NCBI GenBank assembly: GCA_038046445.1
Contig: JBBSWE010000185.1
Location: 1-34,525 of the forward strand
Source of the DNA: Nanobdellota archaeon
GTDB taxonomy: Archaea > Nanobdellota > Nanobdellia > Woesearchaeales > GW2011-AR9
Length of the DNA: 34,525 bases
Reading direction: 5' to 3'
Below, piece by piece: positions 23,900-31,459 of the stretch; positions within the stretch are counted from its first letter, which is position 1; every line of letters starts with the position of its first letter. Made by a program: the position numbers and the translations under genes. The notes below the pieces were generated by a model that worked only from the letters and a program-made list of their open reading frames with translations, was not told where the DNA came from and did not search any database.

Positions 23900-24238
23900 G
23901 GTAGGGGTGGTAGATAGCAGAGGGTAGCAATACTCAGGAAAGTCCGTCCACTAACTTATCGCAAGAGTAGCGCGACGATGGCTCTCAGAGAGAGAAGGGG
24001 AAAACCCTTGGCTCTGGCTCCAGCAACGACACGTCCATAACTTAGGATGAAAATGGCGAAGTTTTCAGCGATGAAAATGAGTTAATCCGTTGACGTTGGT
24101 TATGGGAACGATGAAACGGCGAATCCCCATCGGTGCAAGTTCCGTTGTGAACGCTTAGTAGAATGCTATCAAATGATCATCGACATCACTGGTTGATGTT
24201 TTGGGTCAATACAAAAGACGGCTTATTCCCCCCTACCC
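23900..24238 (+). ncRNA. rnpB: RNase P RNA (archaeal, type-A-like)
   Basis: Terminal helix 'ggtagggg' (23900-) pairs with 'cccctacc' (-24238). CR-I/P4 5' strand 'GGAAAGTCC' at 23937-23945. CR-V/P4 3' strand 'AGACGGCTTA' at 24216-24225. A GC-rich, non-coding stretch of about 339 nt in an AT-rich genome. Confidence 0.8.
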
Positions 24239-25500: not shown

Positions 25501-25959
25501 ATGTCTTCAGATTATCACCTTGCTTGGAATAATGCGATCCAACAGCAACGTATCGCTGCCCATCTGCTGGAAGTTACTTTTCCCCTTTCTAAAGATCCCA
25601 AACTGCTGTTAGGAGTAATCTATAATCTCTGCGGAGCGTTAGAATATGCTTTAGATGCTCTCCTTCTTTCGGAAGGGATTACGGCAGGAGAAGGTTTTCA
25701 AAGCAAACTTACTGCGTTAAAGATAAAATCCAGCCAAGGAAGCAAAATCACGTTAGAAGATATCAAATTCATGCATTGGCTGCAAGAGATTAAAGTCAAG
25801 CATAAGCAATCACCAATGGAATTTCAAAGAGGCAAAAATTTGGTGATTTGCAGTGCCGAATATCAAATGCAAGTACTTTCCGTTCTAGAAATCAAGAAGT
25901 ACCTTAAACAAAGCGAAGAACTGTTGCAACGTTTAAATGGCGTTATTAATCGAAAGTAA
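25501..25959 (+). CDS. hypothetical all-helical protein (member 1 of a pair)
   Basis: 152-aa ORF with weak colinear similarity to the next ORF. Confidence 0.45.
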   Translation: MSSDYHLAWNNAIQQQRIAAHLLEVTFPLSKDPKLLLGVIYNLCGALEYALDALLLSEGITAGEGFQSKLTALKIKSSQGSKITLEDIKFMHWLQEIKVKHKQSPMEFQRGKNLVICSAEYQMQVLSVLEIKKYLKQSEELLQRLNGVINRK

Positions 25960-26004: not shown

Positions 26005-26472
26005 ATGGATGAATACCTTTTAGAAGCGCGCGAAGAGTTAAAGCGCCTGGAACACATTATTTACGTCAGTTTAAAATATACCCGAACCACGGATGTAATT
26101 ATTAACGCTTTAACCCGTTTAATAAGCGTTTTTGATCTGATTATTGAAGCTTATCTAGAAAAAGCTAAAGAGGAAGGAAAAATTACTACTCTTCCAAAGA
26201 GCCCGGCTCTTCGTGGGACCATATTAGGAAAGTTATATGGGGAAGACCCAGAACTGCAAAAGTATTTGGAATTTTATTCTTTTTTGAAAATCATCCTAAA
26301 ATCTTCTTATAATAAACGCGAAGAATATCGCCGCCACGTTACCGTAATTGTAGAATTAGATCAGTGCACGGCTTTCGTAGACATCGATTGCCTAATTAAC
26401 TATGAAAGATTTGTACGCAATTTCTTGAAATGTGCTTACCGCCAGATAGAAGGAAGGAAGGACGAGGATTAA
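26005..26472 (+). CDS. hypothetical all-helical protein (member 2 of a pair)
   Basis: 155-aa ORF. See the previous entry. Confidence 0.45.
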   Translation: MDEYLLEAREELKRLEHIIYVSLKYTRTTDVIINALTRLISVFDLIIEAYLEKAKEEGKITTLPKSPALRGTILGKLYGEDPELQKYLEFYSFLKIILKSSYNKREEYRRHVTVIVELDQCTAFVDIDCLINYERFVRNFLKCAYRQIEGRKDED

Positions 26473-26502: not shown

Positions 26503-27426
26503 TTATCTTTTCTTCTTAGGCAATCCTCTATTAACTTCCTTGCTAGATATTTCACTGGAAAACTTATCTTCAAACTTAGTTAAAACATCCATCCTAAGAA
26601 TATAAGTATCAGCATGTTGAGCATAAGCAATCCAACCTTCCATAAAATCATAGAGTTCATCGTAATCTATTTGCTTATTTTCAAAAAGACTTATGTTTTC
26701 CTTAAGCGTTCTTTGAAATTTCCGACGGTTTCTCCTTTTGATTAATCGGTAATGTGAAAATACCTTGAATCCCAGAAAGTCAACGCCATTCTCTAAGGAA
26801 ATAATTCTTGACTTATCTGGATGCAGTTCTAAAGCAAGATGTTCGTAAAGAAAAGAATCAATCTTGTTTTTCCATTCTTCCAAAAGAATTTTAGATGGAT
26901 GTAATATCACAAAATCATCCACATAACGCAGATAATACTTTGCTTTCAATTGGTGTTTAACAAATTGATCTAACTCATTAAGATAGACATTAGCAAAGAA
27001 TTGACTGGTTAAATTACCTAAAGGCATTCCCTTTTCAGAAGAATGATTTTTAAGAATCTTCTTAATCAACCAAACTATTCTTGCATCTTTAATCTTAGAT
27101 TTAAGTATCTTAAGCAAGGTGTCATGATTTACAGTTTCAAAATAATGCCGGATATCTGCTTTCAAGACGTAAGCGGGAAAAGCATAGTTTTTGGTTATCT
27201 CTTTAGAAAAATGTTCAAATCGTTTTATGGCTTTAAAGGCTCCTTTACCAATGCGGTTTGCATAAGAATCGCAAATAAAGCTTTTCTCAAACAGGGGTTC
27301 GATAACGTTGCATAAAGCATGATGAATAACTCGGTCTCGAAAATGAGCTTTGCTAATCTTCCGAGTTTTAGGGTCACGAAGAATGAAAGTCTCTAATGGA
27401 CGTGGCTGATAAGAATGAAATAATAA
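26503..27426 (-). pseudogene. DGR-type reverse transcriptase, C-terminal 307 codons (separated from its N-terminus by an IS insertion)
   Basis: 'FRDRVIHHAL', 'ADIRHYFETVNH', 'GMPLGNLTSQFFANVYLNELD' (the DGR-typical (I/L)GxxxSQ motif) and 'YLRYVDDFVIL' (YxDD). The frame is open from the IS boundary at 27426 to the stop at 26503. Confidence 0.85.
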
Positions 27427-27442
27427 TTGCTGTGTTGCATAA
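27427..27442. repeat. IS left terminal inverted repeat
   Basis: TTGCTGTGTTGCATAA. An exact reverse complement lies at 28600-28615. Confidence 0.85.
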
Positions 27443-27446
27443 ATAA

Positions 27447-27575
27447 TCAATCGTTCACAATAATTACATAGGCTCTTTTGCCTATGTACTTTTTTGGTGC
27501 ATCCAGTTTTCCAGAGTTCCCAAATTGAGTGATTACTTTTTCATACACTACATTGACCTTTTCTTTAATGATCAT
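27447..27575 (-). CDS. small IS-encoded protein, AbrB/SpoVT-like (reminiscent of the archaeal DUF2080 transposon-associated family)
   Basis: A 42-aa ORF not in the track: MIIKEKVNVVYEKVITQFGNSGKLDAPKKYIGKRAYVIIVND. 'aggag' lies just upstream of the ATG. The 'FGNSG...PKK.IGK...V' pattern is recalled from memory. Confidence 0.45.
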   Translation of the reverse strand: MIIKEKVNVVYEKVITQFGNSGKLDAPKKYIGKRAYVIIVND

Positions 27576-27661
27576 GTCTCCTGATAATAATTTAATTTGT
27601 CTCATGGATTTAGGATATCCATGGATATATTTAAATATTTGTATACTCTAGTATATAGATT

Positions 27662-28582
27662 ATGGCAAAAAACAAAAGATGGGGAGACACATACATAGAC
27701 CGGCGTAATTGGCCAGTTTATAGCGAACAGCTTGTAAAGCGAGGAGAATATCTCCTCGATACTGATTTTGTATCCAATTGGGATAAAGAGCTTTCCAACA
27801 TGAATGCTGGAAAGCACGGAGCACCTTACCAATTTCCAAATACGCTTATCGAACTACAAGCAGTTTGGCATGCGAAAATGATACCTTGTCGCATGATTGA
27901 AGGAATTACTAGGAAATTGGCAGACCTTGAGAAGGTTCCCAATTTCAACGATTTTTCTACAATTAATCGACGTATAAACAAGCTATCCTGTCAGCTAGCA
28001 ATTCCTGCGTCAGACAACTTAACCCTATTTAGTGATGGTACAAGTTTGCAAGCAGTAGAAGGTGGAGAATACCTTCGTGAAAAATACGGAAAAAAGAATC
28101 GTCGTTGGATTCAAGTTGTAATCCTCGGCGATCCTAAAAGCAAAGAACCAGTAAGTTATGAAGTGAATCTAATTCAAGATTCTGAATTGGCTTCAACAAA
28201 AAGACAGCTTGTTGAATTGAAAAAAAATAAGATAAACATTGTAGCTGTTGGTGGAGATGGTTCTTATGATGAAATCGCTTTCTGGAACCAACTGGTTTAT
28301 AATCGGATTGAACCGATTATAAAACCAGATAGAAATGCAATAATCCCTTCTGGAAGTAGAGAAAGAGACAAAAATACAGAAGAACGGAATGTACTTGGTT
28401 ATGATCTTTGGGCAAGAGAACATGGATATGGGTATCGTTGGCCAGCAACGGAAGGGATATTTAGCGCAGTAAAACGTATATTTGGAGAAGAAGTTCATGC
28501 TAAGACCGAGTTAGGTATGCTTCAAGAAGCCAAAATTAAGTTTTGGGCGTATCAAAAGATTAAACTTTATGGAGAAGCATAG
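27662..28582 (+). CDS. DDE transposase, IS5-family-like
   Basis: 306 aa. N-terminal 'NWPVYSEQLVKRGEYLL' resembles the IS5-group 'NW.aYNeaL..RGsl' motif. Candidate DDE triad in 'LFSDGTS', 'VGGDGSYD' and 'YGYRWPATEGIFSAVKRIFG' (YREK-like). Confidence 0.8.
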   Translation: MAKNKRWGDTYIDRRNWPVYSEQLVKRGEYLLDTDFVSNWDKELSNMNAGKHGAPYQFPNTLIELQAVWHAKMIPCRMIEGITRKLADLEKVPNFNDFSTINRRINKLSCQLAIPASDNLTLFSDGTSLQAVEGGEYLREKYGKKNRRWIQVVILGDPKSKEPVSYEVNLIQDSELASTKRQLVELKKNKINIVAVGGDGSYDEIAFWNQLVYNRIEPIIKPDRNAIIPSGSRERDKNTEERNVLGYDLWAREHGYGYRWPATEGIFSAVKRIFGEEVHAKTELGMLQEAKIKFWAYQKIKLYGEA

Positions 28583-28599
28583 CGGAAGCTATGCTTCAA

Positions 28600-28615
28600 T
28601 TATGCAACACAGCAA
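28600..28615. repeat. IS right terminal inverted repeat
   Basis: TTATGCAACACAGCAA, the exact reverse complement of 27427-27442. Confidence 0.85.
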
Positions 28616-28769
28616 ATAATAATTCTGTTCTTAACAAAAATAGATTATCAAACAAGTGGTCTTCAAATTCAATCACATACAACTTTAAGGTTTTATGTTT
28701 TCTTGCTCTTTTGAAAGCCAGTTCTAAATTCTTCTTGGAGCAAAGCTGCTCCCACAGGTCATCAGTCAA
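28616..28769 (-). pseudogene. DGR-type reverse transcriptase, N-terminal fragment
   Basis: '(L/M)TDDLWEQLCSKKNLELAFKRARKHKTLKLYVIEFEDHLFDNLFLLRTELLF' is a typical DGR-RT N-terminus. The possible start is the TTG at 28769, since there is no in-frame ATG. The frame is also open upstream through the TR to 28889. It continues in phase with 27426 once the IS and one TSD copy are removed. Confidence 0.75.
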
Positions 28770-28793
28770 AATGAAAGTCTCAGCACGCTGGGC

Positions 28794-28885
28794 TATTCCA
28801 CGGACGCGGTTATTGTTATTGATGTTACGATCATTCGCGTTGAAATTGGAATTGTTGTTGAAATTATTCAGCCACGAAGCCCGCC
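28794..28885 (-). repeat. DGR template repeat (TR)
   Basis: Ungapped 92-bp match to 29294-29385. On the minus strand it is AAY-rich (..NNFNNNSNFNANDRNINNNN..). 17 of its 31 adenines differ in the VR. It lies immediately upstream of the RT. Confidence 0.85.
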
Positions 28886-29070
28886 TCACGAATAGCTCTT
28901 ATTGCTTTGGAAGTGCTCTCTTCCATCACACACCATGGCTTCATTTCTGTCGCCATTGTAATTTATCAAACTGGAACTTGTTCAATTTGAAGGTTTCATA
29001 ACCGAGTCGCCTCAGCCCTAGCAAAAGAGCGTGTAGTCCAGCCTACTCCATACGAAGCTGCTGAGACAAC

Positions 29071-29099
29071 TAAAAGAAGAAAAAAGAAGTATAAAAAGT
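29071..29099 (-). terminator. oligo-T tract after the DGR target gene
   Basis: The minus strand reads 'actttttatacttcttttttcttctttt' directly after the stop at 29100-29102. Confidence 0.35.
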
Positions 29100-29966
29100 T
29101 TACTGAGCTTTTCCAGCCAAATATCTGGTTAAAATACATGACAAACCGGCAGCAGTTTTATCATCTAAAGCACTTACTGCAGCATCAGGACTACCTAAGA
29201 TTCTAGCGTAACAATTGCCCAAAGTCATTTCCTGTGGAGCTATTGGAACACTTGGAGTCTCGGACGCGTCGCCTGCGGCGACTACCTCACGACGTACCCC
29301 ACGGACGCGGGAATCGTAATAGATAGTACGAACAACCGCGTTGAAACAGGAATAGTAGTTGAAATAATACAGCCACGAAGCCCGCCCAATAGCGTCTTTC
29401 TTGGCATTAGCCTTAACATAATCTGGAGCTAAAACGTAAATTTTAGTTTCAGCAATTCTCTGCGGAGAAGTTCTCAATTTAGCCATATTAGCATCATAAT
29501 CTGCTTCAGTTGGTCCGAATACTCTCTTCAATAATTTTTGCTGTTCAGGATTGTAATCTCCGATATCTTTGGAAGTATCAACAGCCAAATAACGCCATTC
29601 TTTCTCTTTACCAGATAATTCTAATTTGGTTAAGTCAATAGTGACGGTATCATTTGCAGCTTTTACAGCAGCAAAATCTTCGGGAGTAACAAAATAATTT
29701 TCTTGAGTGGTTAATTGTATGAAAGCATCATCTATATTATTTAAAACTGGATTAACAGCTTTTCTAGTAATTCTTAAAGTAGGAGTTCCGTTATACATAG
29801 AATAAACTTCTCCATCAGCAGTGTAGAACCATAGGTCTCTTAAACTTGCGTCGTCTCGGCGTTCTCGCATTAATTCGTCAACGTGTTTTAAAGTGCCAGG
29901 AACTGCTTGCTTGTAAGCATCTCTTAAATTTCCATCAATATTCTCAATTTTTTGTTCTAAAGCCAT
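29100..29966 (-). CDS. DGR variable (target) protein; no signal peptide; VR encodes residues about 195-224
   Basis: 288-aa ORF with GGAGG (29973-29977, minus strand) 6 nt upstream of the ATG. It contains the VR 'GRASWLYYFNYYSCFNAVVRTIYYDSRVRG', which resembles a minimal C-type-lectin-fold VR. No other domain recognised. Confidence 0.8.
   Translation of the reverse strand: MALEQKIENIDGNLRDAYKQAVPGTLKHVDELMRERRDDASLRDLWFYTADGEVYSMYNGTPTLRITRKAVNPVLNNIDDAFIQLTTQENYFVTPEDFAAVKAANDTVTIDLTKLELSGKEKEWRYLAVDTSKDIGDYNPEQQKLLKRVFGPTEADYDANMAKLRTSPQRIAETKIYVLAPDYVKANAKKDAIGRASWLYYFNYYSCFNAVVRTIYYDSRVRGVRREVVAAGDASETPSVPIAPQEMTLGNCYARILGSPDAAVSALDDKTAAGLSCILTRYLAGKAQ
29267..29281 (-). promoter_or_regulatory. 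GC-rich hairpin just 3' of the VR (candidate DGR homing-associated stem-loop)
   Basis: GTCGCC-tgc-GGCGAC, a 6-bp perfect GC-rich stem with a 3-nt loop, 13 nt downstream (coding sense) of the VR/TR homology boundary. It is absent at the equivalent TR position. Confidence 0.5.
29294..29385 (-). repeat. DGR variable repeat (VR)
   Basis: See the TR entry. Mismatches to the TR are confined to TR-adenine positions except one (29324). The 3' end shares an invariant GC-rich block, CCGCGTCCGTGG on the minus strand. Confidence 0.85.
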
Positions 29967-30986: not shown

Positions 30987-31459
30987 GCCGGGAGCGGCTG
31001 CTGAGGAAAGGCTGGCCGGAAGCGGAAGTAAGAAGAGTAGAGGCGGCATTAAAAGGTTCCGAAAAGGAAAACATTTTTTTCTCCCGAATTGCTTTCTGGA
31101 CGGCACTAATCGTGATAGTTATTGCTAATCTGATTGTTTCTTTAGTTTTAATCCCCTTTCTAGTTTTCTTGAAGAGTTGGGCCCTTTATTCCATAGTAGC
31201 CGTATTAGGAATACTGGTCGGTTTCGTATATAATTTTTTAATTACAGACATCCAACACTTAAGGTGGCATCACCATCTGTTGGGAGGAATAATCTTGCCT
31301 ATCATCGCTTTGGTCAATATGATTATAGTAGTTTTAGTCTCTAATCGTTACGTAGAAAAGTCTCTTTTAACGCAGGATAACAGTCCCTGGTTGATTGGAG
31401 GAATTTTTGCTGTAGCTTTTATCTTGCCTGCGGCGATAGATTGGATTATTAGTAAATAA
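30983..31459 (+). CDS. polytopic membrane protein translationally coupled to minD
   Basis: ATG at 30983 overlaps the minD TGA (ATGA). 158 aa with a basic cytosolic N-terminus 'MSRERLLRKGWPEAEVRRVEAAL' and four predicted TMs. Confidence 0.55.
   Translation: MSRERLLRKGWPEAEVRRVEAALKGSEKENIFFSRIAFWTALIVIVIANLIVSLVLIPFLVFLKSWALYSIVAVLGILVGFVYNFLITDIQHLRWHHHLLGGIILPIIALVNMIIVVLVSNRYVEKSLLTQDNSPWLIGGIFAVAFILPAAIDWIISK

Follow-up and report, generated by a model that had tools for sequence, protein, structure and literature searches.

An IS5-family insertion sequence interrupts the reverse transcriptase gene of a diversity-generating retroelement in a DPANN archaeon

The split reverse transcriptase gene and its insert

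The DNA analysed here, referred to throughout as the window, is a stretch of 34,525 nt from contig JBBSWE010000185.1 of a Nanobdellota archaeon assembly (GCA_038046445.1). Its minus strand carries the cassette of a diversity-generating retroelement (DGR), in which a target gene with its variable repeat (VR), a leader, a template repeat (TR), and a reverse transcriptase (RT) gene follow one another in that order. The cassette contains no intact, expressible RT gene, as the gene is split by an insertion sequence (IS) of 1187 bp that occupies positions 27428-28614 (+). The encoded RT has the hallmarks of the DGR clade, namely a match to Pfam RVT_1, an SQ dipeptide within LGNLTSQ, and a YVDD motif; an SQ dipeptide in motif 4 ([I/L]GxxxSQ) is an established criterion for DGR RTs (PMC3521204). 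Judged from its sequence, the locus has the descent and architecture of a DGR but is no longer intact.

The point of insertion corresponds to codons 49-52 of the 356 codons of the RT gene, and lies within the AT-rich 9-mer AATAATAAT. The 5′ fragment (28615-28769, minus strand) retains codons 1-52, with a probable TTG start at 28769 that was placed by alignment to relatives, which begin M-x-(D/E)-L-(W/Y). In its present form, this fragment takes the third base of codon 52 from the end of the IS and continues into the element as AVLHN before reaching a stop codon at 28596-28598; the resulting N-terminal peptide thus has 57 residues, 52 from the RT and 5 encoded by the IS. The 3′ fragment (26503-27418, minus strand) begins with the third base of codon 52, ends at the stop codon, and matches RVT_1 with an E-value of 3.6e-21. 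Its 304 codons encompass RT motifs 1-7, including LGNLTSQ and YVDD, and it possesses neither a native start codon nor a native promoter.

A sequence-only reading of this stretch had proposed that the RT gene is split and that its frame can be reconstructed. Indeed, the in silico removal of 1196 bp (27427-28622 or, equivalently, 27420-28615) joins the two fragments into a single, stop-free minus-strand open reading frame (ORF) of 356 codons (...DNLFLLRTELLFHSYQPRPLETFILRDPKTRKIS...). The rebuilt RT reads ...FEDHLFDNLFLLRTELLFHSYQPRPLETFILRDPKTRKIS... across the join, and the empty-site sequence of the restored allele is ...GAATGAAATAATAATTCTGTTC.... The same reading had made its case depend on the joined halves aligning colinearly with full-length DGR RTs, and such colinearity was observed in three comparisons. 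The rebuilt RT is colinear with 11 full-length DPANN DGR RTs, with no gap at the junction (LLRTELLFHSYQPRPLETF, compared with LLRTELLFHFYQPRPLETF in P0002); the nucleotide alignment to an uninterrupted relative, L003, is also gap-free at the junction; and the closest solved homolog, the DGR RT 8ub7_A (E = 6e-42), is colinear over residues 5-326, which include the split point. More broadly, thousands of RTs in metagenome-assembled genomes (MAGs) of Woesearchaeota and Nanoarchaeota share 60-87% identity with the rebuilt RT.

In public annotation, the 3′ fragment is given as a complete 315-aa protein that starts from a TTG codon (27450) inside the IS, and P0001, which is 100% identical to this call, bears the name 'reverse transcriptase/maturase family protein'. 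We flag as an annotation error this presentation of an RT fragment as a protein that begins in the IS. In addition, a 136-aa ORF has been called at 28591-29001 (+), on the strand opposite to the TR and the RT 5′ fragment; this ORF is probably spurious.

The ends of the inserted element are marked by the 16-mer TTGCTGTGTTGCATAA, which has two sites in the window, 27427-27442 (+) and 28600-28615 (-), and no third one even when up to 3 mismatches are allowed. The heptamer ATAATAA adjoins both ends, at 27420-27426 and 28616-28622, and a repeat finder joins the two arms of the IS into one extended inverted repeat. It was on these features that the sequence-only reading had based a 1189-bp element with 16-bp inverted termini and a 7-bp ATAATAA duplication, and all of them are present where it had placed them. 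The sizes, however, are better given as 1187, 15, and 9 bp. The direct repeat at the insertion is 10 bp in full (AATAATAATT), and therefore the window sequence alone cannot place the boundary between the inverted repeat and the duplication. This boundary was set instead from the ends of copies that carry relatives of the transposase, which were fetched from metagenomes and GTDB genomes.

Approximately 20 related copies, with transposase identities of 57-94%, share the ends TGCTGTGTTGCATAA...TTATGCAACACAGCA, and the same 15-mer TGCTGTGTTGCATAA forms the terminus of L004-L013, L016, L017, and L025. Those relatives with intact and reliable flanks are bordered by 9-bp duplications (GTTTAAACG in L014, TCTTTTTCC in L017, and GGTTTGCGG in L023), and re-pairing of flanks that had been swapped between contigs recovered a further two, AAATTATAG and ATAATATTA, also of 9 bp. 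Because the family termini and the duplications of the relatives fix the length of the window duplication at 9 bp, the best partition is an IS of 1187 bp at 27428-28614, bounded by perfect 15-bp inverted repeats and flanked by a 9-bp target-site duplication of AATAATAAT. The left inverted repeat, TGCTGTGTTGCATAA, lies at 27428-27442 (+) and the right one, which is TGCTGTGTTGCATAA on the minus strand, at 28600-28614 (-), and the two copies of the duplication occupy 27419-27427 and 28615-28623. Both the 1196-bp total and the rebuilt ORF are unchanged whether the 15/9 or the 16/7 partition is applied.

The probability that a matching 9-mer would abut both ends by chance was calculated here from base composition as approximately 1e-5. 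Taken with the perfect 15-bp inverted repeat bracketing a transposase gene and the restoration of the frame upon excision, this makes a chance origin of the IS anatomy negligible. The IS is present as a single copy within the window, and its GC content (0.37) is close to that of the window (0.36).

The larger of the two genes within the element (27662-28582, plus strand) encodes an intact, full-length DDE transposase of 306 aa. It scores 142.3 bits against the NCBIfam model for IS5 family transposases (NF033579, cutoff 140), covering model positions 1-286 of 289, and also matches Pfam DDE_Tnp_1_5 and DDE_Tnp_1, both above their gathering thresholds. The second gene (27447-27605, minus strand) encodes a DUF2080 transposase-associated accessory protein of 52 aa (PF09853, E = 3.5e-15; NF033496, E = 4e-13). 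It is divergent from the transposase gene and points outward over the left IS end, sharing the orientation of the RT gene; the pair is also found in relatives. Given a transposase above the family cutoff, bracketing inverted repeats, a length within the range of ~0.8-1.5 kb, and a fixed 9-bp duplication, the insert is an IS5-family insertion sequence. The 56-nt intergenic region between its divergent genes (27606-27661) is AT-rich and holds the palindrome ATCCATGGAT; it is the likely site of the divergent promoters and an operator of the IS. A literature search on DUF2080 returned nothing that bears on IS biology.

The transposase is identical in L001 and L002, and over 100 protein clusters, with lengths of 304-307 aa, are 74-94% identical to it, mostly on contigs of ~1.2 kb, a length typical of collapsed repeats. 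Hosts of the IS family comprise DPANN archaea (Nanoarchaeia, Woesearchaeota, Micrarchaeota, and Iainarchaeota), Methanosarcinales, and Thermoplasmata. Copies of the family on three contigs of 1.2-3 kb (L020, L021, and L024) have been binned in Herpetosiphon, Victivallis, and Poribacteria MAGs, which probably reflects binning contamination and not bacterial hosts. Among contigs from JGI, ENA, and Logan (L006-L013), identical IS copies occur with their flanks exchanged: for example, AAATTATAG ends the left flank of L006, L009, L010, and L011, and starts the right flank of L008 and L012. Evidently, assemblers mis-join separate insertions of this family, whose duplications become visible only after the flanks have been re-paired.

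A distant bacterial member of the IS5 family, 1048 bp long and located on the Klebsiella plasmid NZ_AP018454.1, is similarly organized, with one DDE transposase (~306-315 aa across both elements), a 9-bp duplication (ATATTGAAC), and termini (GGCTTTGTTGCACAA) that are identical to the archaeal TGCTGTGTTGCATAA at 12 of 15 bases. However, the two transposases are only ~29% identical, and the archaeal IS is longer (1187 bp), with the additional divergent DUF2080 gene. A 9-bp duplication together with GGCTTTGTTG-type termini is the IS903-type pattern, and IS903 is a tentative subgroup name for such elements.

Repeats, leader, and target gene

The TR (28798-28884, minus strand) and the VR (29299-29385, minus strand) were located by a BLAST comparison of the TR region with the window and by alignment. 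Each is 87 nt long, and the TR contains 28 adenines. The RT start follows 28 nt after the end of the TR, and the VR lies 501 nt upstream of the TR on the same strand, in the last third of the target ORF. Between the two repeats there are 16 mismatches, 15 of which fall at TR adenines, so that 15 of the 28 TR adenines have been changed. The remaining difference, a C in the TR (28824) that is a T in the VR (29325), is located directly 3′ of a mutated adenine on the minus strand, and could be either a mistake of the RT at a non-adenine position or a point mutation that arose once the RT had been inactivated. The target gene itself (29100-29966, minus strand), taken from the ORF list, is open and encodes a variable protein of 288 aa. 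It matches no Pfam or NCBIfam family, and has homologs of 220-330 aa in Nanoarchaeota and Woesearchaeota MAGs.

Between the target stop codon and the TR lies a non-coding leader of 215 nt (28885-29099, minus strand), which aligns at the nucleotide level with positions 9873-10086 of L003, a relative whose RT has 87% identity. This alignment, with an overall identity of 82%, begins immediately after the target stop and covers the leader, the TR, and the RT gene, while the body of the target gene is barely alignable. The neighbourhoods of the two loci differ, with an intein-containing PolB gene in L003 as opposed to NAC and Sec61-beta genes beside the cassette in the window. The leader was matched by nhmmer in L003 (E = 2.8e-34) and in L040 (E = 5e-9), with no other detectable homologs. 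Together, these alignments suggest that the leader forms a unit with the TR and the RT, either in movement or in conservation, and may belong to the DGR RNA. A 30-codon ORF noticed by eye in the leader was rejected as a gene, being absent as a conserved frame from L003.

Because the TR ends only 28 nt from the RT start, any spacer or priming region resembling that of the Bordetella phage BPP-1 would overlap the 5′ coding sequence of the RT, upstream of the point of IS insertion. Estimated by eye, the ~60 nt that follow the TR (28740-28797, minus strand), which consist of the 28-nt spacer and the first RT codons, are ~93% identical to L003, compared with ~80% for the rest of the RT gene. Some gene calls run on through the TR, and a TR in frame with the RT was therefore considered as a conserved trait; it was rejected, since the frame stays open over 30 or more upstream codons at only 34 of 76 loci. 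The BPP-1 DGR RT (structures 8ub7-8ube) shares the SQ and YxDD motifs with the RT studied here and is colinear with it, although their sequence similarity is distant. The BPP-1 cassette differs in its avd gene and in the long spacer that separates its TR from its RT.

Downstream of the VR, at a distance of 17 nt, a centroid fold predicts a candidate GC hairpin with a 6-bp stem and a 3-nt loop (GTCGCC-GCA-GGCGAC; 29267-29281, minus strand); the segment is no more stable than its shuffles (z = 0.58). The target-recognition elements of DGRs, an IMH and a hairpin, are located at the 3′ end of the VR. No Avd accessory gene was detected beside the cassette by Pfam searches of the ORFs at 25501-25959, 26005-26472, and 28996-29139. 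Avd is not universal among DGRs, and is hard to detect from sequence. The first two of these ORFs, both on the plus strand and of ~150 aa, are convergent with the RT gene and belong to no Pfam family.

DGRs are common in DPANN archaea (PMC6349945; PMC4372165), and those of Nanoarchaeota, Woesearchaeota, and Pacearchaeota were described by Paul et al. 2015 (PMC4372165) and, as cited in PMC6349945, by Paul et al. 2017. The cassette in the window resembles these in its RT clade (60-87% identity) and its compact arrangement of target-VR, TR, and RT, and the candidate hairpin after the VR may correspond to the hairpin with a trinucleotide loop reported for Nanoarchaeota DGRs (PMC4372165). It differs from them in its interrupted RT gene and in the lack of an Avd-like gene detectable by Pfam.

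Genomic context and reality of the junctions

The genes near the cassette include those for NAC, Sec61-beta, SecDF, and CTP synthase. An archaeal RNase P RNA is encoded at 23900-24237 (+), with a full-length match to the Rfam model RF00373 (117.6 bits), and the window yielded no tRNA genes. The chromosomal, archaeal context of the cassette is thereby confirmed, and the host is a groundwater DPANN archaeon (Nanoarchaeota/Woesearchaeota).

The junctions between the IS and the RT gene were found in identical form in three assemblies, namely the window, contig CAYIJW010000001.1 of GCA_964363875.1 (59 kb), and the ENA contig Hain_H52_02um_R2_4458 (10.8 kb). The three are identical over the IS, the TR, and the VR, and differ only at positions 31059, 31220, and 31453. 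This agreement bears on the question as to whether the insertion might be an assembly chimera, in which a repeated IS contig has been wrongly joined into the RT gene. Such errors do occur around this very family, as the exchanged flanks of L006-L013 attest. However, a chimera would not be expected to yield a perfect 9-bp target duplication, nor to leave two gene halves that rejoin in frame and without a gap relative to intact relatives, and it would have had to arise in the same form in three separate assemblies. We therefore regard a chimeric origin as barely conceivable.

The sequence-only reading had also called for a search for other copies of the IS and for the uninterrupted allele. The former was productive, with ~20 related copies located elsewhere in addition to the one in the window. 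The latter was not: among ~5.8 billion proteins, no uninterrupted allele of the same strain was found, and the best full-length RT is 87% identical. This RT resides in a different genomic context, adjoining a PolB gene in another MAG. Among the matches listed, 0 of 80 related RT loci carried an interrupted RT, and 0 of 36 loci carrying relatives of the IS had RT-like flanks. Two ideas were rejected on these counts, namely that RT relatives are often interrupted and that the IS family targets RT genes; nothing in these loci suggests that the IS and RT genes are repeatedly associated.

These surveys also bear on a further explanation, according to which the insertion acts as a reversible switch akin to phase variation, whereby precise excision across the 9-bp duplications would restore the RT and the population would toggle hypermutation. 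Removal of the IS and one copy of the duplication does restore the exact ORF, and reversible IS insertion and excision governs genes in other organisms, as for IS492 in Pseudoalteromonas and IS256 at the ica locus of Staphylococcus. Moreover, in Thiohalocapsa, intact and transposon-interrupted RT alleles exist side by side (PMC10907252). Against a switch, the insertion is present in all three assemblies, the protein search yielded no uninterrupted allele of the strain and nothing closer than the RT with 87% identity, and neither the 80 RT loci among the matches listed nor the 36 loci with IS relatives repeat the arrangement. Furthermore, DDE-type IS elements seldom excise precisely. A reversible switch is accordingly judged very improbable.

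With regard to the VR, the target protein (P0241) falls into a 90% cluster that contains a single sequence, although it has been seen in NCBI, ENA, and Logan sources. No VR variants were found, either in this target-protein cluster or among the three assemblies, whose VRs are identical. The single-member cluster is weakly consistent with a frozen VR.

Probable inactivation of the retroelement

On the evidence presented above, we consider it highly probable that a single copy of an IS5-family element has split the chromosomal RT gene of a DPANN DGR, that this happened recently, and that the DGR has been left switched off. In the proposed sequence of events, the IS would have inserted into the 9-mer AATAATAAT within the RT gene, duplicating it, and would thereby have converted the gene into an N-terminal peptide of 57 residues and a 3′ fragment of 304 codons. 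The RT of a DGR copies the TR RNA into adenine-mutagenised cDNA; in its absence, mutagenic retrohoming into the VR should cease, and the VR should then stay frozen at its present sequence.

The N-terminal 52 residues that have been severed from the RT are well conserved. They contain 13 of the invariant columns of the alignment with the 11 relatives, including the pattern NL..A...A...KT....V..FE, and they align with residues 8-55 of the solved RT 8ub7_A. Because the lost N-terminus includes these 13 invariant columns and lies in the region aligned to the solved RT, the RT is most likely dead, and mutagenic homing is most likely off.

Yet the DGR might conceivably still be active. The 3′ fragment might be transcribed by read-out from the DUF2080 gene, with translation beginning at the TTG codon of position 27450, or else the two fragments might complement one another. 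The 315-aa ORF does start within the left IS end in the RT frame, its TTG overlaps the DUF2080 stop codon, and it keeps RT motifs 1-7 and a thumb-like C-terminus, with no invariant residue lost (0 of 131 deviations). However, chance alone would leave the frame open into the IS end in approximately 1 of 3 cases. In addition, the 52 missing residues are the ones with 13 invariant columns, and they lie in the region that aligns not only with the solved DGR RT but also with group II intron RTs, in which the handling of template and primer depends on this N-terminal extension (RT0). Nor were any VR variants seen in the target-protein cluster. Continued activity through a truncated or complemented RT is thus improbable. 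The broader notion that the IS sets a regulatory state of the DGR, whether as a switch reversed by excision or through a truncated RT driven by a DUF2080 promoter, appears equally improbable when the two forms are taken together, and nothing here supports either.

The preferred reading, that of a recent inactivating insertion, includes a statement about time. Neither half of the RT contains a stop codon or a frameshift, and the rebuilt RT shows no deviation at any of the 131 columns that are invariant in the 11 intact relatives, which themselves deviate at 0-6. Together with the perfect repeats and duplication and the full-length transposase, these undamaged halves point to a recent event, which accords with the recent insertion that had been proposed from the sequence alone. 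The only hint of decay is the single non-adenine mismatch between TR and VR.

Several observations nevertheless weigh against this account of a recent and complete inactivation. Zero deviation at invariant sites would also be expected if the fragments remain under selection. The searches recovered no empty-site allele of this strain by which polymorphism and timing could be judged, and a single-member cluster derived from consensus assemblies is weak evidence for the lack of VR diversification. The in-frame TTG at 27450 opens a 315-aa ORF with RT motifs 1-7, such that a truncated RT may be expressed. Lastly, no Avd gene was detected by Pfam in the neighbouring ORFs, so that the competence of the cassette before the insertion is itself no more than presumed.

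The interruption of a DGR RT by a mobile element has precedents, and its earlier description as an unusual natural off-state was therefore overstated. In Acaryochloris marina MBIC11017, an insertion-disrupted DGR RT with intact, adenine-only TR/VR differences was read in 2012 as a very recent inactivation (PMC3521204, Fig. 4B; Schillinger et al.), and in 2024 long reads from DGR 3 of Thiohalocapsa PB-PSB1 revealed coexisting intact and transposon-interrupted RT alleles (PMC10907252; Dore et al.). As in the window, a transposable element splits the RT in both cases while the TR and VR remain intact with adenine-specific mismatches. Unlike the present case, which concerns a DPANN archaeon and an archaeal IS with a DUF2080 gene, both are bacterial, and in Thiohalocapsa an intact allele coexisted with the interrupted one, whereas none was found here. 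The locus is thus a new archaeal instance of a type of event known in bacteria, brought about by an ordinary IS5-family element.

For the IS family, the analysis establishes where an IS5-family element with a DUF2080 gene, widespread among DPANN archaea, begins and ends, and that it duplicates 9 bp of its target. DGRs in these archaea are thought to drive the diversification of surface proteins. In the locus studied here, one such DGR has probably been knocked out naturally, in a clean and datable way, within a group of organisms that cannot be cultured. If cells with and without the IS coexist, they would allow VR diversity to be compared in situ in the presence and absence of a working RT.

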